Positions 1 to 64,000 of a stretch of 64,000 bases of DNA are shown here, in pieces. The translations under genes were made by a program, and so were the position numbers. The stretch comes from a virus, in IMG/VR virus record IMGVR_UViG_3300027985_000557, positions 3,046-67,045 of that record; one strand, written 5' to 3'. Below the pieces are notes generated by a model. The model ran no database searches, was not told the origin of the DNA, and saw nothing but the letters and a program-made list of their open reading frames with translations. The stretch's first letter is position 1, and the number at the start of each line of letters is the position of its first letter.

Positions 1-617
1 ATACGGCCCGTCCTGGCACCCTGGCACTACCCCCCGGGGCGACCCGGGACATGCCGCCCTTTTACGTTGAGTATCTGAAGTCAAGGGGTTACGGTGAAGA
101 GGTCGTCCAACGATTTGACCTGCACGCGGGTGGCTACTCTGGCCCTTTCAAATATCGTTTGATCATACCCGTGTATTGGCACGACCAGCTTGTGAACTAC
201 CTGGGGCGCGACGTCACCGGGCAACTTTCCTCACGGTACAAGAACTGCCGCAACGAATTGGCAGTCGTTCATTCCAAAAGCTGTGTCTACAACATCGATC
301 AGGCCAGCAGGAAGATCATTATCTGTGAAGGTCCGACTGACGTGTGGCGCATGGGCTCTGGTGCCGTCTGCACCCTTGGAACAACTTTCACCAATGACCA
401 GATACGAACCATCAAGGACGCGGGTGTCACGCACGCCGCTGTTCTATTCGACCCGGGGCCGAAGTCCCAGCGCCTTGCCCAGATGCTTGCTGGTTCCCTT
501 GACATGATGGGAATTGAATCCATGGTGTACTGCATGGAGGGTGATCAAGACCCAGGCGAGCTAGACGACGACGCAGCATATGAAATCAGGAAAGAAATAA
601 TGGACTTCATGGGTTGA
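1..617 (+). CDS. DNA primase, TOPRIM-containing C-terminal part (5' truncated by window)
   Basis: YLKSRG, RLIIPV, GRDV, RYKN and TOPRIM motifs ICEGPTD, LFD, DQDPG; frame is open to the window edge. Confidence 0.85.
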   Translation, partial: TARPGTLALPPGATRDMPPFYVEYLKSRGYGEEVVQRFDLHAGGYSGPFKYRLIIPVYWHDQLVNYLGRDVTGQLSSRYKNCRNELAVVHSKSCVYNIDQASRKIIICEGPTDVWRMGSGAVCTLGTTFTNDQIRTIKDAGVTHAAVLFDPGPKSQRLAQMLAGSLDMMGIESMVYCMEGDQDPGELDDDAAYEIRKEIMDFMG

Positions 618-642
618 CCCTGGCCCGGGTAGGCGATACTTT
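614..642 (+). promoter_or_regulatory. Putative sigma70-type promoter
   Basis: TTGACC (614-619), 17-nt spacer, TACTTT (637-642). Confidence 0.5.
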
Positions 643-648
643 GCCCAT

Positions 649-924
649 GTAACAGGCACCACCGTGCGGGGAGTAGTGACCCCGTTCGGGACATCAATCA
701 GCCGAGTGCAGACGGCGCAACTTATAATGCAGGAATGTAGGTTATGGATGACCATAATCAAGTCCCCTCATGGGGAAAGCCTAAAGAACACCAGCAGCGC
801 GCAAATCCTACGTTCCTGCTATTCTGCACTTTTCATGCGCTGATGGTTCGGGTCACTACCCCGGCTTTAGGATTTCCACCACAAGAATGGTCCCGGTCTA
901 TTGTGATCGGGACCATTTTTGTTT
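649..924 (+). ncRNA. Putative structured ncRNA or attenuator leader, family unknown
   Basis: Nested stems 673-682/850-859, 697-702/839-844, 705-712/823-830, 729-741/807-819; inner hairpins 742-757 and 763-776; flanked by a promoter and a terminator. Confidence 0.6.
886..924 (+). terminator. Intrinsic terminator
   Basis: 13-bp stem AATGGTCCCGGTC / GATCGGGACCATT (one G-U) followed by TTTGTTT. Confidence 0.75.
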
Positions 925-943
925 GAGGACAAGGAGCGCGGAT

Positions 944-2488
944 ATGGAAGCCATGTACGACCAGAGTTTTACCTTGGACCCCTCGAACAGGCCCCGCTAC
1001 CGGGCCGTTCCTGACTACTGGGATCATATCCTAAAAGGCAACCACCACCGAGTATTCACATTCATCTACTTCCACGTGGCGCGCCTCATTGCCTCGAACA
1101 CAGGCACTGTCAAAAAGTACCGGAAGCGGGCAAATGGCGGTGTCTGGTGCCAAAGTCCTCTGATAGCCGAACGCCTGGGCTGCACTGAAAAAACCGTGAA
1201 CAATGCCATAGCTTACCTTGATTCCATCGGGTTGCTTATTCGTGTAAGCAATCCGTCGCACGCAAGGGAAGAATTACGGCGTGTCTTCTTCGTGAATCAT
1301 GCGGTCCTGAAGAGACTTGACGCCGCCTACATGAGCGTCAACACGGACGCATGGCACGAACGCTATGACTCTTACGAAGAATACGAGGACGCCAAGCAAG
1401 AGGCCGTAATGCGGGAGTGGGACAATTTCATCACCGCAGGTCGTGAAGCCGCTATTGAACAATTGATTACCGAGTACAAGGTCACGCTACCCCCGGCGGT
1501 AAAAATTACCGCCACCCCCGGTGACTTTTACCGTCCCTCTTACTTAGACAATATCAAAGACAATAAAGAGGTTTCTTCTTCGAAGAAACCGGTGGTTCCG
1601 AGCGGAACCACCTGCACGCCGGCTGCGCCCCCTGTGACAAGGCGTCGTGTCCCCGAAGGTCTTGCCTCCAGTGAAACACCCTTGTTCAAACGCAAACCAG
1701 TCCTTGATGCCAAGACAGGACAAGAAGCCCCTTGCAATACCCTTGCCCAACATGAACGCTACTTGCTTGAATACTGGAACAGCAAAGACACCTTGCGGAC
1801 CCATAAGATCCCGTCTGAGGGTTCCGCGCCGACGAACACCGTCAGGCGGTTTATCACGGACCTCAAGAAGCTCATGGGCGGCACCTTGTTCAAGGGCCTG
1901 CAAGATGTAGATCCTTGTCACGTGCGGGCCTACAGCGTGGCCGAGGTGCGCAAGGCCATCGACGCGTTTGCCCTGGCCGACCCAGTGCTCCGCGACGGGG
2001 TGGGCCTGGACACCTTCTTATTCAATCCTAACCGGGTGGGCGGGCGCAACGGCTTTGGGCGCTCTTGGTTTCTGGCGGCCCTGCACAACGACGTGCGCGG
2101 TTCGATAACCCAGCGCGCTGATGACCATCCCGATCTGACACAGAATTTAATCAAGCAGTATCGCTATTACCATCTCAGGAACAACCCGGTTCAGTTTGAT
2201 ACCCGGGACATGAACAGTTTTATTCAATCGACTGAAAAGATCTTTGCCCTTTACGCCAAGTACGAAGAACGGTTCAGAATGCTCAACTACGGCCCTATCG
2301 ACATCATGCGCAAGGCCGTAGAGGTATCGGCTCATTGGGCCAAGCGGATTGACGTTACCCCAGCCACCATGCACTGCGACTCTCTGTTCAAAGCTATCGA
2401 GGCCTCCATGCTGAAGTCCGGTGTTGTCCAGCAAGACAGCGCCGACGACGAAACCACCGTGTTCGACATCTACGCACCCCGCGACTAG
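944..2488 (+). CDS. Putative replication initiator with N-terminal winged HTH
   Basis: IAERLGCTEKTVNNAIAYLDSIGLLIR helix-turn-helix; lies between primase and helicase; AAGGAG RBS at 931-936 favours ATG 944 over 887. Confidence 0.65.
   Translation: MEAMYDQSFTLDPSNRPRYRAVPDYWDHILKGNHHRVFTFIYFHVARLIASNTGTVKKYRKRANGGVWCQSPLIAERLGCTEKTVNNAIAYLDSIGLLIRVSNPSHAREELRRVFFVNHAVLKRLDAAYMSVNTDAWHERYDSYEEYEDAKQEAVMREWDNFITAGREAAIEQLITEYKVTLPPAVKITATPGDFYRPSYLDNIKDNKEVSSSKKPVVPSGTTCTPAAPPVTRRRVPEGLASSETPLFKRKPVLDAKTGQEAPCNTLAQHERYLLEYWNSKDTLRTHKIPSEGSAPTNTVRRFITDLKKLMGGTLFKGLQDVDPCHVRAYSVAEVRKAIDAFALADPVLRDGVGLDTFLFNPNRVGGRNGFGRSWFLAALHNDVRGSITQRADDHPDLTQNLIKQYRYYHLRNNPVQFDTRDMNSFIQSTEKIFALYAKYEERFRMLNYGPIDIMRKAVEVSAHWAKRIDVTPATMHCDSLFKAIEASMLKSGVVQQDSADDETTVFDIYAPRD
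1497..1612. repeat. Palindrome cluster, candidate replication origin inside the initiator gene
   Basis: CGGT-N7-ACCG at 1497 and 1519; AGACAATA at 1546 and 1558; perfect inverted repeats 1570-1590 and 1591-1612. Confidence 0.45.
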
Positions 2489-2499
2489 GAGCTGGCTTC

Positions 2500-4026
2500 A
2501 TGAGTCTGAGTAGCAACCCGCGTTTGCAGAAGGTAGTAGGCCATGAAAAGATCATTATCACCGGCCTCATCGTGTCGGACACGTTCTGCCAGCAGATTGT
2601 GCCGATACTCGACTTCAACATGTTCGAACAGACGTGGATGCGCGCCCTTGTTGTGAAGTGCGTGGCATACTACGAAGAGTACCACGCCTCCCCGAAGCAA
2701 AGTGTCATCTCGCTGTTTGAAGTCCTGCAAGATGAACTGAGCGAAACAGAAGCGGACCTTATCGCTACGTTCCTTGAGATGCTGTCCACGGACTACGCCA
2801 AGATTGAGGCATCGTTCAATGAACAGTTCTACATCGACGAAGCGGACATGTTCGTCAAGAAGAAGTCTTTGGAGGCGCATATCAGCCGCATCCAAAGTAT
2901 GATCGTCATGGGCAAAACGGAAGATGCCTACGCTCTGGCGAACAACTTTAAGCCTCATGCCCTCAACGGGCACACGAACGGCTTCTGGCGGTTGCGTGAG
3001 GACACCAGCTATGTGAAGATAACACACGCGGACGAGGAAACCAGCGACAGCCGCATCGTACTGGAGTACCCCGGGGCCGTGGGTCGTTTGATCGGCCCTT
3101 GTCGGCGTGGATGGCTGGGCGCTTTCCTGGCCCCCATGAAACGTGGCAAATCCAACTTTCTCATGGAATCAGCGGTCCTGGGCGTGCTGAGGGGGCGCAA
3201 GGTATTCGTCGCCCTGCATGAGATGAAAGAGGATGAATGGTTCGACCGCCTGCTGCTGAATATCAGCGGCGGCGTCTACGGCGACAACACGGCCCTGAAC
3301 ATGCCTGTGTTCGACTGCCTGTCCAACCGCGAGGGCACGTGCATCAAGACCTTCCGCATAAACAAGGAGCCCTACGGCAAAGGGAGCAACCCCCGGTACA
3401 TGGCATGCAATGTCTGTGAACGGGTCAAGGATGGCGGGCACAAGCCCTGTGTGTCCTTTCCGCTCACGGAGTTTCCCCGGCTGAAAACGACGGATGCTAG
3501 ACGCATAACCCAAAGTTTCGGGGCCAGTGCCGGTGGCGACATCATACTTAAGAAGTATGACGCCAACACCGCCAACAGCAAAACGCTCTACCGAGATTGG
3601 CAGTACCTCGCAGATTCTGGCGACGTGTGTGACATCATAATTTCTGACTACGCGGACATCCAAGGCCCGGAAGATAAAGGGCAGGTTGATTCTATCCAGC
3701 GCATCGACGCTACGTGGCTCGGACTGAAGTGGTTGGCGGACACCACGAATGCACTTACACTCACGGCCACGCAAGGCAAACTCAAATCCTTGACTGCTGA
3801 CGACATCGGGCAGGACGACGTGTCCGGGTACATCGGCAAGGCGGCCCATGTTGACTTCATGGTGGGCCTGTCACAAACCAAGGAAGAGAAGTCGCAGGGC
3901 ATTATGCGCCTCAGCAACCTATATCACCGATTTGCGTCCTGTAACGACAACACATGTTGTTCAGTACTCCAGCGCCTTGACTGCGGAAAGTACATTCTTG
4001 ACAGTAGGATGGGAAAGGTGGCCTAA
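2500..4026 (+). CDS. dnaB: Replicative SF4 (DnaB/gp41-like) helicase
   Basis: Walker A APMKRGKS, HEM motif 1a, IISDYAD Walker B, LTATQ, VDFMVGL; Cys-rich insertion. Confidence 0.85.
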   Translation: MSLSSNPRLQKVVGHEKIIITGLIVSDTFCQQIVPILDFNMFEQTWMRALVVKCVAYYEEYHASPKQSVISLFEVLQDELSETEADLIATFLEMLSTDYAKIEASFNEQFYIDEADMFVKKKSLEAHISRIQSMIVMGKTEDAYALANNFKPHALNGHTNGFWRLREDTSYVKITHADEETSDSRIVLEYPGAVGRLIGPCRRGWLGAFLAPMKRGKSNFLMESAVLGVLRGRKVFVALHEMKEDEWFDRLLLNISGGVYGDNTALNMPVFDCLSNREGTCIKTFRINKEPYGKGSNPRYMACNVCERVKDGGHKPCVSFPLTEFPRLKTTDARRITQSFGASAGGDIILKKYDANTANSKTLYRDWQYLADSGDVCDIIISDYADIQGPEDKGQVDSIQRIDATWLGLKWLADTTNALTLTATQGKLKSLTADDIGQDDVSGYIGKAAHVDFMVGLSQTKEEKSQGIMRLSNLYHRFASCNDNTCCSVLQRLDCGKYILDSRMGKVA

Positions 4027-4066
4027 AAATCTGGCAACTTTTTGCATAAATCGTCATGGTACTCCC

Positions 4067-4095
4067 TTGCTTTTGGGCATGCCCCGGGGTATTAT
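4067..4095 (+). promoter_or_regulatory. Putative sigma70-type promoter
   Basis: TTGCTT, 17-nt spacer, TATTAT in the intergenic gap. Confidence 0.55.
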
Positions 4096-4168
4096 GACTT
4101 TGACACTAGCAACACGGGGCGGAAGGGCCGCCCATAACTTCCAACCAACCCCACAGCGGGAGGATACC

Positions 4169-5008
4169 ATGGAATACGCCGCCATCAAATCGGCCGTCGA
4201 AAAGCTGAACGCCTCGCTCGAAAACAAGATCAAGACCGTGGCCGTCAAGGCCGACGACGTGAAGTCCAACTTCTCCAAGGCCATCGGCGACCTGGGCCTG
4301 GAAGCCACCCTGGTTCTCGATCCCGACATCATCCGCGCCTTCGTCCACGTGGTCGGCGCGCTGCCCGATGCCGACTACGCGGGCCTGGACGAAAAGATCC
4401 GCACCGTGTACGACGGCATCCCGGACGAGTACTTCGCGGCCCCGGCCAGCGCCGAGGGCGAGGGCGAGCGCACCGAGGGCGCTTCCGAAGGCGACGGCAC
4501 CAAGGCCCCGGAGGACCCCAAGGCTCCGGCCGCGCCCAAGGCCCCCAAGGAGCCCAAGGCCCCCAAGAAGCCCGGTGACAAGGGCTACAAGTCCGAGTGC
4601 GCCGACTTTGGCAAGAACTGCGACGACGCCGCCCAGCTCTGCCGGTCCTGCAAGGAAAGCCGCAACGACGAATACACCGTCTGCGCCGAGAAGACCGCTG
4701 CCAAGAAGGCCAAGAAAGCCCCGTCCGCCCCGGTGCGCGAGAAGAACGCCCTCGGTCACGTCATCGGCTCCATGTCCGCCGACATCGACGAAATGTTCCT
4801 CGCCGGCCCCTGCTACGCCGACGACGTCATCAAGGTGCTCATGGAAAAGCACCCCACCAAGGACGCCGCGAAGGCCAAGGAAAAGCTGAAGAGCCACATT
4901 TCCTGGCTGATCAACCGCGAAGGCCACAAGGTCGTGCAGACCCCCGAAGGCGAAGGCGACGCCAAGCGCGTCAAGATCGTCTTCACCGCCAAGGCCCCGG
5001 CTGCCTAG
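4169..5008 (+). CDS. Probably highly expressed Lys/Ala/Pro-rich protein with Cys4 motif, possible DNA-binding protein
   Basis: GGAGG RBS before ATG 4169; strongly C/G-ending codons like the capsid gene; PKAPK repeats; C-x2-FG...CRSC...C; own promoter and terminator. Confidence 0.7.
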   Translation: MEYAAIKSAVEKLNASLENKIKTVAVKADDVKSNFSKAIGDLGLEATLVLDPDIIRAFVHVVGALPDADYAGLDEKIRTVYDGIPDEYFAAPASAEGEGERTEGASEGDGTKAPEDPKAPAAPKAPKEPKAPKKPGDKGYKSECADFGKNCDDAAQLCRSCKESRNDEYTVCAEKTAAKKAKKAPSAPVREKNALGHVIGSMSADIDEMFLAGPCYADDVIKVLMEKHPTKDAAKAKEKLKSHISWLINREGHKVVQTPEGEGDAKRVKIVFTAKAPAA

Positions 5009-5040
5009 CTCACCCGCATCGGGTGGATGAGTTAGGTTTA

Positions 5041-5075
5041 GGCCCTGCCCCATGTTCCAGGGGCAGGGCCTTTTC
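5041..5075 (+). terminator. Intrinsic terminator
   Basis: GGCCCTGCCCC / GGGGCAGGGCC stem followed by TTTT. Confidence 0.75.
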
Positions 5076-5092
5076 AATCCAAGGAGGAAAGC

Positions 5093-5854
5093 ATGATCAG
5101 CGTCAAGTCTAAGGATATGGCAACCTTCCTCAAACGCGTCTACCTCGGGGGCGTCATTGAGGACTGCGTACTTCAAACGACCCCCGAAGGCATGTGTGTT
5201 CAGGCCCTCGACCTGTCCAACACCCTGCTCCTGTCCGTCGCGGCCCCTTTCGAGGCGACCCTCAATGCTGGTAACCTGGGCATCAGTCTGCTCGACTGGC
5301 TTATCAAGGCCCTTGGCTCATTCGGCGACGGCCAGATCGAAATGGGCATCGAAGGTAACCGCCTCATCATGCGCGGGGCCGGCAACAGCCTGAAGTACCT
5401 GCTCTCCAGTGCCGAGGCCGTCCCGACCATGCCTGAAGACCCGGCCGCCCTTGCCACCGTCAAGGATGCCCTGGTCTATTCCGTCAAGCTGGACGACCTG
5501 AACAAAGGCAACCTGACCACGAACATCAGCTTGTTCAAGAAACCCACCGTTACGGTAAACATCAACGCGAACAACGGCAAGGGCACCTGCTCCGTCGTCT
5601 GCGGCGCGGAAACCGAGAACCAGTTCACCGTCCAGTTCGGCCGCGTGACCGTCGCTGAGGGAGCGGAGATTATGCCGCTGTCTTTTGAGGTCAATGCAGC
5701 CCACGTCAAAGCCTGTCTGGAAGCCACGTCCAGCGGCGAAGGAACCCCGCTCATGATGATGGCCGCGAACCCCAAGTACCCGGTCATCATCTGCCAGGGC
5801 ATGGACCTCTGGGGATTTCTCCCTGCCGTCGCCCGTCCGAGCGGAGGTGCCTAA
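5093..5854 (+). CDS. Sliding clamp (gp45/PCNA-like)
   Basis: 253 aa, alternating beta/alpha clamp-like pattern (VQALDLSNTLLLSV), directly upstream of the clamp loader. Confidence 0.7.
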   Translation: MISVKSKDMATFLKRVYLGGVIEDCVLQTTPEGMCVQALDLSNTLLLSVAAPFEATLNAGNLGISLLDWLIKALGSFGDGQIEMGIEGNRLIMRGAGNSLKYLLSSAEAVPTMPEDPAALATVKDALVYSVKLDDLNKGNLTTNISLFKKPTVTVNINANNGKGTCSVVCGAETENQFTVQFGRVTVAEGAEIMPLSFEVNAAHVKACLEATSSGEGTPLMMMAANPKYPVIICQGMDLWGFLPAVARPSGGA

Positions 5855-6792
5855 TGTCCATCGAATCCTTCATCTGGTACGAGAAGTATCGCCCGACCAA
5901 CCTCGCCGACATGGTCATGCGGGAGCCCACCCGCGCGGCAATGGAATCCTTCATTACCCAAGACGAGATTCCACACCTGCTGCTGCACGGCCCGGCGGGC
6001 TCCGGCAAGACCACGGTAGCCAAGATCCTGTACGAAACCATTCCGTGTGCGGTTTTGGAGTTAAACGCCTCTAGCGGCGACCGTGGCGTGGAAATCATGA
6101 AGACCAAGGTGAAGCAGTTCGCCGCGTCGGCCCCCATGCCCGGCAAGGACCTGAAGATAGTCTTCCTTGACGAAGCGGACGGCCTGACCCTGGATGCCCA
6201 GAAGGCTCTGCGCAATACCATCGAGGCCTACCAATCCACGTGCCGCTTCTTGTTCACGTGTAACCACTTCGACAAGATGCATGATGCCATTATCAGCCGC
6301 TGCATGTGTTTTGAGTTCAGCCAGTTTCCTCTGGCCGACATGAAGAAGCACGCCTGCGGCATTCTGCGGAAGGAGGGCGTGACGTTTGACCGGGCGGCCG
6401 TGGGCCAACTGGTCGAGCGTTTCTACCCGGACTTCCGTACCATCCTCAACTCCATGCACCTGGGCTCCTTGTCCGGCACGTTTAATGCGGCGTCCATTGC
6501 CGCCCTGAATATTGACCCGGACACGGTCCTCAACTTCCTGCTTGATGGCAAAGTCGGCGAGCTGCGTCGGTATTGGGCCGGGCTGTCCGACTTCACCTTC
6601 ATTTACAAAATCCTGTTCGACAAACTGGTGCCCCTCATTGCCCAGCAAAGCGGCACGGATGCCGCTCGGGTGGTTGTCGTTCTGGCCGAGTACCTGGGGC
6701 GTGACTCTACCATTCCCGACCGTGAACTCAATTTCACGGCCTGCTGCTGCGCCTTGATGGATATCCTCGGCGCGCCGCACGACTTTGCGTAG
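5854..6792 (+). CDS. Clamp loader AAA+ subunit (RFC small/T4 gp44-like)
   Basis: WYEKYRP, GPAGSGKTT, ELNAS, LDEAD, SRC motifs. Confidence 0.93.
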   Translation: MSIESFIWYEKYRPTNLADMVMREPTRAAMESFITQDEIPHLLLHGPAGSGKTTVAKILYETIPCAVLELNASSGDRGVEIMKTKVKQFAASAPMPGKDLKIVFLDEADGLTLDAQKALRNTIEAYQSTCRFLFTCNHFDKMHDAIISRCMCFEFSQFPLADMKKHACGILRKEGVTFDRAAVGQLVERFYPDFRTILNSMHLGSLSGTFNAASIAALNIDPDTVLNFLLDGKVGELRRYWAGLSDFTFIYKILFDKLVPLIAQQSGTDAARVVVVLAEYLGRDSTIPDRELNFTACCCALMDILGAPHDFA

Positions 6793-19162: not shown

Positions 19163-20059
19163 ATGATCACAAACAGGAAATTCGTTGTGGTGCTCGACTG
19201 TAACGGCATCATGCACATGCTGAAGCATGGCATCAAACGCGACATGTCCCACGGGGGATATGAAACGAGCATCATATACGGGTTCCTGGGACAGATCCGG
19301 TACTATGCGGCTCGTTTCAACACGAGCCGCTTTGTGTTCGCCTGGGACTCGCGTAAATCTCTGCGAAAAGAACGATACCCGTGGTACAAAGAGAAGGGCA
19401 AGGAAGAGACGCCCACCGACCAAGAGATTGAGTTTGAAGCATCTGTCTACCGGCAGTTCAACCAGATTCGCCGCTACGTGGTGCCGACCATCGGGTTCAA
19501 AAATACCTTCCACGTCGCCGGGTACGAGGCTGACGACCTTATCGCCAACATACTCATTCAAAACCCGGACAATCGGTTCATACTGGTGTCTCGGGACGCG
19601 GACATGTACCAACTCTTGCGGTACTGTCTGATCTGTAATCCGGCAACCAAAGAGCTTTACAGCACGGCCGAACTGCAAAACGAATATGGTGTCACACCCG
19701 AGCAGTGGGTGGACATCAAGAAACTCGGCGGCTGCACGTCTGACAAGGTGCCCGGGATACCCGGCGTCGGCGAGGGTGTAGCGGGCCAGTGGATCCGAGG
19801 CGAGCTAAAGCCGAAAGGAAAACGCTATCAAGCTATAGCGGCCGACCTTGCCAACGAAAACAGCGTGGCGGCTCAAAATGATTGGTTGGTGCGCTTACCT
19901 CTACCGGGGACACCGGATATTCGCATTTCCTTTGATGACGAAGTACTCAGCCTGTACGGCTTCGAGGACGTGTGCTCGCGCTATGGCTTCGCATCGCTTC
20001 TGGAAAAGACCACCTTTGAAGTATGGAAAGCGCAACTGAATTTGCGGGAGGAGGACTAG
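19163..20059 (+). CDS. 5'-3' exonuclease (FEN/T4 RNase H-like)
   Basis: VLD.N, FAWD, YK, YEADDLIA, SRDADMYQL, G..SDKVPGIPGVG. Confidence 0.92.
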   Translation: MITNRKFVVVLDCNGIMHMLKHGIKRDMSHGGYETSIIYGFLGQIRYYAARFNTSRFVFAWDSRKSLRKERYPWYKEKGKEETPTDQEIEFEASVYRQFNQIRRYVVPTIGFKNTFHVAGYEADDLIANILIQNPDNRFILVSRDADMYQLLRYCLICNPATKELYSTAELQNEYGVTPEQWVDIKKLGGCTSDKVPGIPGVGEGVAGQWIRGELKPKGKRYQAIAADLANENSVAAQNDWLVRLPLPGTPDIRISFDDEVLSLYGFEDVCSRYGFASLLEKTTFEVWKAQLNLREED

Positions 20060-24193: not shown

Positions 24194-24219
24194 GGGGGAG
24201 GGCCTCGAGGCCCTCCCCC
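24194..24219 (+). terminator. GC-rich hairpin, terminator or processing site
   Basis: GGGGAGGGCC / GGCCCTCCCC inverted repeat, weak U-tract. Confidence 0.4.
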
Positions 24220-33655: not shown

Positions 33656-34210
33656 TTATGGGCCAGCGTGCGCCCCAGCGGCGGCAACGGCGGCCTTAAC
33701 CGCCGGAGTATTATGCCACATCCACAGGGCAACCAAGGCGATCAAAACCGCAACGCTATAGGCAATTCGTAACTCCCACTTGATGCGGTCCCATGATTCT
33801 GCCAGGGTCTTGGCTGGTTTTACTTCTTCCACAATCATAGCTTTCAGCGTGGCGACAATATCTTCCAAACATTTCTTGGTAAGGATGTCGCGGGTGTCGT
33901 CACGCTCTTTTTGGATTGTATGCCTGGAATCGCAGGCTTGGTTACGGATGCGGTGGCCCTCGTCGATAGCCACCTTGACCTTTTCAAGAATCTCGATAAT
34001 GTCAGAAGACTGCCCTTCGGTAATCTCCCGAAGGGCGTCTATGATGGTCTGGCGAGTCGGCTCGCTCTGCGCCATATCAACGATACGCTGAATCTGCTGC
34101 GTCACCAGGGCAAGCAGTTGTGATTGCTTGTTCTGGGTTTCTTGAAATGGAAGCAGAACGGACTGAAGTAGACTGACAAGCTCCCTCAGTTCATCGACTC
34201 CTGCCATCAT
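33656..34210 (-). CDS. Coiled-coil protein with C-terminal TM helix, holin/antiholin candidate
   Basis: Heptads then IAYSVAVLIALVALWMW; directly upstream of the endolysin. Confidence 0.6.
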   Translation of the reverse strand: MMAGVDELRELVSLLQSVLLPFQETQNKQSQLLALVTQQIQRIVDMAQSEPTRQTIIDALREITEGQSSDIIEILEKVKVAIDEGHRIRNQACDSRHTIQKERDDTRDILTKKCLEDIVATLKAMIVEEVKPAKTLAESWDRIKWELRIAYSVAVLIALVALWMWHNTPAVKAAVAAAGAHAGP

Positions 34211-59337: not shown

Positions 59338-59354
59338 GACGCTCTCCTTCATAA

Positions 59355-59381
59355 CAGGGGGCTAGGCGTTCTAGCCCCCTG
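59355..59381 (-). terminator. Hairpin after the major capsid gene
   Basis: CAGGGGGCTAG / CTAGCCCCCTG inverted repeat. Confidence 0.55.
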
Positions 59382-59398
59382 ATTGATTGGCTGGATGG

Positions 59399-60619
59399 TT
59401 ATTTCACGACCATCGTGTAGGTGGTGTCCGGGTTGTAGTAGACCGGGAGGCCCTTGTCCTGCACGCGAATCCAGACGCCGTCCGGATCCCACTCGTACTT
59501 GGTGTCCACGTAGGTGCCCCAACGGCGATCGACGCCGTGGGGGGCCGCGAGGAACTCGGCGACGGCCACGCCTTCCGCCGTGGAAGAGAACATGGTGAAG
59601 GTGTTGTCCGCGATGTATTTCTTCTTCATGAGCACGCGGTCGCGGCCCATGAGGTAGCTCTTGGTCGGGGCGGCGTTCACGGTCACGGTGCCGGCCAGCA
59701 CATCCACGTCGGTGATGGTGCGGTCTTCCCAGACCTTGGGGGTCTTCATGTTCTGAAAGCGCAGGGTGCCGCCGATCTCGAAGTCGGTGACCTGATCCAG
59801 GTAGATCGTGGTGCCGCCCGTGGACGAGGCGTTCTGCATGAGGAACGCCTGGAGTTCGTAGAACTCGTCGTAGACGTACAGCGGGATGCCGAGCAGCGCG
59901 CCGATGACGGCCTTGGGGTTCTTGAACAGGTCGCCGTCGCCGAACTGCGACTTGGCCAGCAGGGTCTGGATCTTGGTGTCCAGCATCAGCAGGGTCAACA
60001 AGGTGCTGTTCAGGATGCCGTATTCGGGCACGACACCGGCATCGTCGGCGAGAACCTTCTTGCCGGTCAGGACGTCCTCGAGCGGATTGCGGTTGGCACC
60101 GTCGCTCCATTTGCGGTCGGCGGCCAGGGTCACGCGGTGGGTGGCGGGAACGCCGTAGTCCACGGTGAAGGCCATGCCCTTGGCATCGAGATAGGAGAAG
60201 CGGCCGTCGGTGAACATCTTGGCGACCATCCACTCGCGCCGACGCAGGCAGCGGTTGCGCAGCTTCAGGGTCTGGCGGGCCAGGGTACGTTCGGCGGTCT
60301 GGTAGGTCTGCACGGTGCCGGGCTGCTTCAGGTTGTTCAGGAAGGATTCGTCGAAGTAGGTCTTCTCCTTCCAGTAGGCCGCCTTGGCCGAACCCTCGCC
60401 GGTCCCGTCCACGCCAACGGTCGGAGCCGGAGCGCCGGGGGCGACGAACGGGGTGATGCCACCCGAGCCGTACTCGTATTCCCACGTGATGGCGTTGGAA
60501 TCGTTGTTGAAGCTGCCGAACATGCCCATGAAAAACCCGGTGGGGGCCTTAACAGGCAGCGAGATGAAACGGTTGAGCACCTCCAGGCGGAGGGCCGGGA
60601 TACCGGAATCGCCTTTCAT
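59399..60619 (-). CDS. Major capsid protein (lambda gpE-like family) with an insertion domain
   Basis: PFVAPGAP, RRREWM, VDYG.P, W......PLED, W.DP, LPV...PD; strong codon bias. Confidence 0.9.
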   Translation of the reverse strand: MKGDSGIPALRLEVLNRFISLPVKAPTGFFMGMFGSFNNDSNAITWEYEYGSGGITPFVAPGAPAPTVGVDGTGEGSAKAAYWKEKTYFDESFLNNLKQPGTVQTYQTAERTLARQTLKLRNRCLRRREWMVAKMFTDGRFSYLDAKGMAFTVDYGVPATHRVTLAADRKWSDGANRNPLEDVLTGKKVLADDAGVVPEYGILNSTLLTLLMLDTKIQTLLAKSQFGDGDLFKNPKAVIGALLGIPLYVYDEFYELQAFLMQNASSTGGTTIYLDQVTDFEIGGTLRFQNMKTPKVWEDRTITDVDVLAGTVTVNAAPTKSYLMGRDRVLMKKKYIADNTFTMFSSTAEGVAVAEFLAAPHGVDRRWGTYVDTKYEWDPDGVWIRVQDKGLPVYYNPDTTYTMVVK

Positions 60620-63514: not shown

Positions 63515-64000
63515 TCACAGAACAGGCCACTGAATAGCTGCTTGTGCCGCCAGGACGTCAGCGACAGAAGAAGTGGCTTTTACCGCCTTTTTCCCGCCAA
63601 GGCGGACGCTCTCCAGCGCATCACCAAAGGCGTACCACGCGTCAGCATTCGCGATGACTATGCGTGCTACATCGACCGGCGTGTCGGCCGTTATACCTAC
63701 TTCAGCATATATAGCCGAATAGGTCTTCTTGAACACCGCTAACGCGTCTTCGGCTACCGGAATAGCATCCGCCATAAAGGCACGAGCCTGCGCCTCTTTA
63801 CGAATGTACGCTGCCATTTGTCCTGCCCCAGGAGTGAGGACGGTGTTACGCAACTGTTCGGCAACGGCGTCGATGGCATTACACACGGAAGCCTTGGCGT
63901 CCTCCAGCGTAACCTCCCAGGCCTGCCCGATCTCCACGGGTGTGCCGTTAGGGATGGTGAGGATGAGGCAGCCCGGGTAACAGCCAGAGACGCACGCGCC
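63515..64000 (-). CDS. Fibre-associated helical protein (5' truncated by window)
   Basis: TPGAGQ...Y..K..QA.AF ... E.VRL.GK.AV ... I.WP; frame is open to the window edge. Confidence 0.6.
   Translation of the reverse strand, partial: GACVSGCYPGCLILTIPNGTPVEIGQAWEVTLEDAKASVCNAIDAVAEQLRNTVLTPGAGQMAAYIRKEAQARAFMADAIPVAEDALAVFKKTYSAIYAEVGITADTPVDVARIVIANADAWYAFGDALESVRLGGKKAVKATSSVADVLAAQAAIQWPVL

Follow-up and report, generated by a model that had tools for sequence, protein, structure and literature searches.

The 326-nt spacer at positions 618–943 of the window (the whole 64,000-nt stretch analyzed here, which corresponds to bases 3046–67045 of the 67,045-nt IMG/VR virus record IMGVR_UViG_3300027985_000557, estimated to be 58% complete) separates a primase gene from a replication initiator-like gene and contains a real, non-coding and strongly structured element on the sense (+) strand. 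The element comprises an imperfect rod of ~195 nt and a separate terminator-like hairpin that ends just upstream of the initiator ribosome-binding site (RBS), and long hairpins head the initiator operon in distant relatives of this phage. The element belongs to no catalogued RNA family and is most likely a new form of leader attenuator for a replication-initiator gene.

The rod spans 668–864 on the + strand, as judged from the minimum free energy (MFE) fold and the inverted repeats. In the MFE fold of 640–925, its 10-bp basal helix (673–682/850–859) is lengthened by 669–671/860–862 and is followed by helices 698–702/839–843, 704–712/823–831 (9 bp) and 729–741/807–819 (13 bp including one G-U pair), with internal loops at 683–697 and 713–728 and two apical hairpins within 742–776 (742–747/752–757 and 763–767/772–776). 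An inverted-repeat search independently returned 670–682/850–862, 705–712/823–830 and 729–746/802–819, and every nested rod helix listed by an initial annotation of this sequence is present in the fold. Folding against shuffled controls, a check proposed in that annotation, gave −117.2 kcal/mol for the + strand of 640–925 compared with −84.5 ± 4.8 kcal/mol for the shuffles (z −6.81; 0 of 200 shuffles as good), and the same element had a z of only −4.36 on the − strand.

Following the rod after a 16-nt linker, an intrinsic-terminator-like hairpin with a U-rich tail occupies 881–929 (+). It pairs 881–898 with 905–922 (18 bp including two G-U pairs, closed by a 6-nt loop), and folded alone it reached −30.2 kcal/mol (z −7.2), whereas its antisense strand reached −22.2 kcal/mol. 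In sequence it has the features of an intrinsic terminator, namely a hairpin that is stable and contains G+C, and a U-rich tract immediately downstream. The end of this hairpin lies 7 nt upstream of the Shine-Dalgarno sequence AAGGAG (930–935), into which the U-rich tail runs, and the initiator ATG follows at 944–946 (+). A terminator of 13 bp ending 6 nt before the RBS had originally been described here; the terminator-like hairpin itself stands, but the 13 bp are only the core of an 18-bp stem and the distance is 7 nt. We scanned both strands of the 64 kb for at least nine uninterrupted pairs followed by a T-rich tail (at least 6 T in 8) and obtained four hairpin-plus-T-run sites in 128 kb, the strongest of which was 881–922 with 17 pairs, compared with 9 pairs in the others. 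A T-rich run covers both the end of the terminator stem and the tail, and a standard terminator scan made no call at 881–922 because the stem extends into this run. On the + strand, just one further site of this type was found, at 19307–19330 (9 bp, seven of them G-C); it is a possible ordinary terminator.

At the other end of the spacer, a candidate sigma-70-type promoter, TTGACC-17-TACTTT (614–642, +), overlaps the primase stop codon. It matches the consensus at 8 of 12 positions (3 of 6 in the −10 box) and was found by relaxed scans only, although the host promoter type may differ; a stricter scan returned no site in 1–6000, and the relaxed pattern TTGAC-N16-20-TAnnnT occurs 12 times in 128 kb, one occurrence being 614–642. 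The promoter that had been assigned to the element exists as a pair of hexamers, but it is weak. Between the terminator hairpin and the initiator RBS there is too little room for a promoter. The genes around the spacer are all on the + strand, and the stretch used as a query is a single copy in its own record.

As the best explanation, in which we have middling confidence, we propose that the spacer is a cis-acting leader and attenuator of the initiator-helicase operon, with an RNA of ~280–310 nt as its terminated product. Transcription would start from the weak promoter at 614–642 and/or arrive from the primase gene, and the nascent leader would fold into the rod before the polymerase reaches the 18-bp U-tailed terminator abutting the initiator Shine-Dalgarno sequence. 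Since no promoter fits between this hairpin and the start codon, the initiator and the helicase would be made only by polymerases reading through the terminator. Attenuation would then set or time the level of the replication proteins, and the terminated transcripts would accumulate as a discrete, stable RNA. Read-through might be modulated by a phage antitermination factor, by the initiator or by the conformation of the rod or pseudoknot. We favor an attenuator because of the layout, that is, the missing room for a promoter and the recurrence of the same layout in distant relatives, while promoter use, termination in vivo and the modulation of read-through are what we infer from the sequence.

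To describe the relatives, we collected five metagenome loci by primase alignment, 14 viral loci by helicase alignment and 12 further viral loci by alignment of the initiator-like protein. Several of them were duplicate or truncated, and 17 distinct relatives having an initiator-like open reading frame (ORF) and readable upstream DNA were judged from folds and repeat lists. The order primase, initiator-like gene, helicase is kept in the relatives at 24–38% identity, and a hairpin of 105–180 nt heads the initiator operon in 10 of the 17 (L004, L006, L007, L008, L012, L013, L014, L023/24, L025 and L026/27). In most of these ten, the hairpin leads straight into a U run, and after another 25–50 nt the initiator, or a small ORF that precedes it, has its start codon; a promoter would not fit into this gap. 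Folded alone, the hairpins had z values from −3.5 to −10.8, and the long hairpin was the top or second inverted repeat of the locus in five of the 14 loci scanned. None of the elements in the 11 loci searched matched Rfam. A promoter and terminator scan of L006, L007, L012 and L025 gave the same counts as shuffles, and its loop limit of 3–8 nt misses the long hairpins. The relatives’ hairpins thus resemble the window element in position, strand and the U run before the RBS, and several share with it a helix between a flank and the interior of the hairpin like that between 774–786 and 865–877 (described below). They differ from it in that they mostly consist of one U-tailed hairpin rather than a rod and a separate terminator, and in their G+C content (0.30–0.49 compared with 0.56 in the window).

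Three of the relatives could be aligned with one another. L012 (3395–3600), L013 (3383–3590) and L026 (1250–1455) have an RNA in which a 120-nt U-tailed hairpin is combined with a flank-to-interior helix and, on the 5’ side, a small hairpin. RNAalifold returned 57 pairs for this group, six of which have changes on both sides, and compensatory changes occur in both long helices. The flank-to-interior helix involves the 5’ flank and measures 14 bp in L012; all three relatives preserve it although its letters differ, and in L026 two of its pairs are G-U. This covariation was read by eye, as MAFFT shifts L026 by one or two columns. The L012 and L013 spacers are 88% identical, and the coding sequence diverges straight after the ATG. 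A conserved 21-mer of this group found just the four contigs already in the set. In a rougher alignment of L006, L007 and L025, 14 of 31 pairs have double changes. The sense strand was the more stable one in nine of the ten elements folded both ways (the exception being L023), or in six of seven independent sequence groups with the window entered a single time. Judged from these sequences, the positional analogues in the relatives appear to be under structural selection, and this selection is likely to act at the RNA level on the sense strand.

Some of the relatives’ loci have features of their own. An extra ORF separates the initiator-like gene from the long hairpin in L007 (4227–4412, 61 aa), L026 (~1448–1864, 138 aa) and L023 (1207–1584, 125 aa). 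The extra ORF of L023 matches phrog_2880, ‘replication initiation protein’ (E 1e-7), and the initiator may be split there. In L032, which has a different arrangement and no hairpin, the region around 1420–1455 resembles, on visual inspection, a tRNA 3’ end and is followed by a small ORF.

Closer relatives are few. The initiator-like protein has four homologues at 36–47% identity, solely from one assembly collection, and the three closest homologues of the primase (70–81% identity) come solely from the same collection. Searched both as a single protein and as an alignment in viral, metagenome and genome contigs, and by tblastn against phages, the initiator yielded no relative, nor did the helicase in a single-protein search of contigs. 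Among the sequencing runs listed as containing this sequence there was no RNA run, and two of the DNA runs may represent the source sample. One metagenome run from a third study, X3, contains a strain that is 90–99% identical across 1–2500 of the window, in the form of ~150-nt contigs, one of which covers 631–781; none covers 782–936. There, 631–704 and 740–781 show no difference, so that the apical segment 740–781 is unchanged, and all ten changes (eight substitutions and two indels) fall within 707–739. Seven of the substitutions are transitions and fall on paired nucleotides of the two inner helices; those at 712, 731 and 739 retain a G-U pair with the 3’ arm of the window. The remaining changes lie in the 713–728 bulge, where the substitution 722 T>A and the loss of 728 abolish the TATAAT motif. 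An internal promoter at this motif (723–728) was dropped, as its −35 region is poor and it is not kept in the variant. Loops that stay constant while the stems change are compatible with selection on an RNA fold, but they do not prove it. Natural strain variants that could settle the covariation question therefore exist.

Besides the rod itself, the leader contains two competing pairings. By repeat search, the apical single-stranded segment 774–786 (+) is complementary at 12 of 13 positions to 865–877 (+) in the linker between rod and terminator, with which it could form, as the 5’ strand, a pseudoknot or an alternative helix, and 868–875 of the same linker segment is complementary at 8 of 8 positions to 803–810. 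Alternative pairings had been noted initially, and they exist; the first is 13 nt long rather than confined to 780–786. The duplex of 774–786 and 865–877 had a z of −2.1 (−2.07; 7 of 200 shuffles as good), and enforcing it changed the fold from −116.6 to −107.8 kcal/mol, a cost of ~9 kcal/mol. Flank-to-interior complementarity of this kind beat shuffles in four elements, namely the window, L004 (3’ flank; z −4.5, 0 of 200 as good), L014 (5’ flank; z −5.1, 0 of 200) and L008 (z −3.0, 2 of 200); in the L012 group the shuffle signal is weak and it is the covariation that supports the helix. These helices cross the rod, and their linkers are short, measuring 2 nt in the window, so that a full rod and the second helix probably do not form at the same time; the modeled crossing helices suggest two states. 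L004 offers as its alternative a U-tailed hairpin of −52.1 kcal/mol, nearly isoenergetic with the rod at −56.2 kcal/mol, and the modeled pair is a classical terminator/antiterminator arrangement. For the window, a conformational switch would be possible but is unsupported by the folds, since the alternative costs ~9 kcal/mol and leaves the separate terminator untouched. Only tentatively, and with clearly less confidence than we place in the attenuator, do we extend the proposal to a class: the window RNA and the relatives’ hairpins may represent an undescribed, fast-evolving class of leader RNAs of large size that stand before the initiator and helicase genes in widespread uncultivated phages with a T4-like replisome. 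The exchange between the rod and the flank-to-interior helix would then be a switch through which a replication-related signal brings about either termination or read-through.

Several observations weigh against an attenuator. In the leader folds there is no alternative structure that would sequester the terminator, and neither competing pairing touches it; nor was a pre-emptor for the terminator 5’ arm found, the best leader duplex having −14.7 kcal/mol and a z of +1.2 (278 of 300 shuffles as good). Of the two-state attenuator that had been suggested for this locus, the alternative pairings and the attenuator layout are thus retained, whereas the pairings miss the terminator and the pre-emptor is lacking. 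As the promoter is weak, the hairpin may serve just to terminate transcription of the primase gene. In a crude, G+C-corrected sliding scan of 200-nt stretches, 751–950 ranked just fourth on the + strand. No RNA homologue of the window element was found in phage records or viral contigs: blastn of the element against 50,697 phage records gave no match, and exact-pattern scans of viral contigs gave 0 hits both with a 22-mer from the apex and with the pair of basal arms. The hairpins of the relatives are analogous to the window element in position but resist alignment with it. Moreover, six of the 17 relatives (L010, L011, L015/16, L018, L032 and L033) have no such hairpin, and that of L031 is shorter and has no U run. 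A strand-neutral tally of mismatches gave 51 of the G-U type and 41 of the A-C type, which is no clear sense bias, the window rod has five and eight, respectively, and isolated mismatches inside helices numbered seven and three. In the X3 strain, the changes at 707, 732, 737 and 738 would break pairs unless the uncovered 3’ arm has changed too.

The element might instead be a stand-alone trans-acting non-coding RNA, a decoy or sponge for a protein (6S-like decoys included) or a base-pairing RNA, whose position is incidental and whose read-through is leakage. We consider this rather unlikely, even though the candidate promoter, the large structured body and the strong terminator form a discrete unit, the rod far exceeds the needs of a terminator, and the apical hairpins and the 5’ part are invariant in X3 while the stems change, as with recognition loops. 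In most relatives, the long hairpin is itself U-tailed before the start codon and so tied to the operon, and the downstream genes of the window have no promoter of their own. No Rfam 15 family reached threshold anywhere in the window, in agreement with the initial failure to recognize a family, and a permissive Rfam scan of 400–1200 gave five chance-level matches, none of them to 6S RNA even at E ≤ 10. The window rod resembles 6S RNA in its length of ~200 nt and its internal loops, but its largest loops are asymmetric (713–728 faces the three nucleotides 820–822) and the promoter-like UAUAAU bulge, on which the initial comparison with 6S-like polymerase decoys leaned, is altered in X3; a 6S-like identity is not supported. 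An RNase III-type processing or stability element within a long primase-initiator-helicase transcript, with no regulated termination, would account for the co-directional genes, the weak promoter and the long helices (18 bp in the window and 25–30 bp in L012, L025 and L006). RNase III cuts about two helical turns of double-stranded RNA, and the window offers helices of 13–18 bp. The R sites in the early region of T7 and the hairpin in the lambda N leader are known processing sites of this enzyme, and the window resembles them in having, shortly before an RBS, a long, imperfect intergenic hairpin whose flanking phage genes run in the same direction. The T7 and lambda sites have no U-run terminator, however, whereas the window has one, and a U-rich tail, for which processing sites have no need, recurs after the hairpin in the window and in most relatives. 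This makes a mere processing element distinctly unlikely.

Attenuation could also be driven by an antisense RNA, such that a counter-transcript from the − strand binds the leader and forces the terminator to form. According to the excerpted account in PMC5703833, the long untranslated leaders of pT181 repC and pIP501 repR end in an inverted repeat and a poly-T stretch just 5’ of the initiator start. The window likewise has a terminator-like repeat and poly-T just 5’ of an initiator start, and by analogy with that account initiator synthesis would need read-through. For such a counter-transcript, the − strand offers a promoter-like match (8 of 12) at 761–734 and a small hairpin with a T-rich tail at 777–763. 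The promoter match is at background frequency, with three such matches in 460 nt, and lies downstream of the − strand hairpin, and the best pairing with the terminator 5’ arm is the one with a z of +1.2 given above. The window, moreover, comes from a phage and not a plasmid, yielded no credible antisense promoter or pre-emptor, and carries a ~195-nt rod that the plasmid mechanism does not need. A pT181-type attenuator is not supported on these grounds, and antisense-driven attenuation is very unlikely. A DNA-level element, either a replication origin or a hairpin in single-stranded DNA that signals initiation, would suit the location in a replication module; it would also keep compensatory changes and would leave a mismatch tally lacking a clear strand bias. 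Plasmid single-strand origins (sso) and the M13 minus-strand origin are initiation signals of the latter kind. The spacer, however, contains no iterons (only two-copy matches of 8–17 nt in 500–1100) and no AT-rich stretch (G+C 0.53 compared with 0.56 for the window), so that both the clustered direct repeats and the AT-rich unwinding region of an iteron-type origin are missing and this reading was rejected; GC skew gave no origin signal either. In most loci the U run and the RBS follow the hairpin on the gene strand, the sense strand folds better in nine of ten elements, and a better origin candidate lies at 1474–1612, with an analogous cluster in L004. We regard a DNA-level function as very improbable. 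Finally, the structure could be incidental to the mRNA of a small protein gene, since the spacer holds two ORFs of 59–60 codons (744–926 and 664–843) and the ATG at 744 is preceded, at a distance of 9 nt, by AGGA. The former has no homologue and no entry of its own in the protein collection, that is, it was not called as a gene in its own record, and the latter matches only stretches of long repetitive proteins, which leaves a small protein gene hardly credible.

Other known elements were considered in addition. ARAGORN found no tRNA or tmRNA, a retron RNA was rejected as no reverse transcriptase is nearby, and a miniature transposable element was rejected as the sequence is single-copy. The portions of the literature returned by full-text searches held no description of a structured RNA at this position in phages. 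In lambda, the tR1 terminator and N antitermination lie ahead of the replication genes O and P. A leader attenuator in the window would resemble this arrangement in that a terminator before replication genes makes their expression conditional on read-through. It differs in that no nut-like site or N-like factor was identified at the window and that the primase gene lies upstream of the terminator, and the large structured RNA has no counterpart in lambda. RNA-level control of initiators is textbook knowledge where plasmids are concerned. The same cannot be said of large lytic or uncultivated phages, and little is known of how these time or dose their initiator and helicase. If the attenuator reading is true, the element would represent a new class of regulatory RNA that holds the same position across relatives with 24–38% protein identity, has a clear output in read-through into the replication genes, and adds to the short list of big structured phage RNAs; if the element is merely an operon terminator and a processing hairpin, it would be ordinary.

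The genes flanking the spacer belong to a replication module. Upstream, the 3’ part of a DnaG-type primase gene occupies 51–617 (+); the full gene encodes 301 aa and starts upstream of the window. The protein has weak Pfam matches to DNAG_N and Toprim and 97 homologues, some of which are labelled DNA primase by their source. Downstream, the initiator-like gene (944–2488, +) encodes a protein of 514 aa with an N-terminal winged helix and a conserved C-terminal domain, and the ATG at 944 agrees with the N-termini of its homologues in the alignment. The protein matches phrog_270, ‘replication initiation protein’, weakly, and the N-terminal domains of DnaD and RepA by profile (E 0.004–0.025), and HTH_36 was found in six of 13 members of its family; the name initiator thus seems reasonable, if weakly supported. 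It is followed by a DnaB-like replicative helicase gene (2500–4026, +; phrog_19, E 1e-21) and, further along, by genes for a clamp-loader-like AAA+ protein, a DNA polymerase, an SSB-like protein and a UvsX-like recombinase.

Within the initiator gene, a cluster of repeats at 1474–1612 is a candidate origin, and by its sequence features a better one than the spacer. It contains 23-nt direct repeats 25 nt apart (1474–1496 and 1499–1521), a 15-nt inverted repeat (1497–1533) and two adjacent perfect palindromes (1570–1590 and 1591–1612). The palindromes overlap the codons for EVSSSKKP, a peptide that is the same in all homologues although the rest of the linker varies. The origin of lambda likewise lies inside its initiator gene, O. 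An origin-like cluster is also present in the initiator-like ORF of L004 (2541–2779), where two 25-nt self-complementary repeats 130 nt apart are accompanied by a 34-nt inverted repeat. Elsewhere in the window, a perfect, G+C-rich palindrome of 26 nt occupies 24194–24219 (overlapping 17-nt arms, 100% complementary). In the sliding fold scan, 5001–5200 (+), 59351–59550 (+), 33951–34150 (+) and 63601–63800 (−) folded as well as or better than the element, and the 200-nt stretches that equalled or outranked it lie mostly in probable coding sequence.

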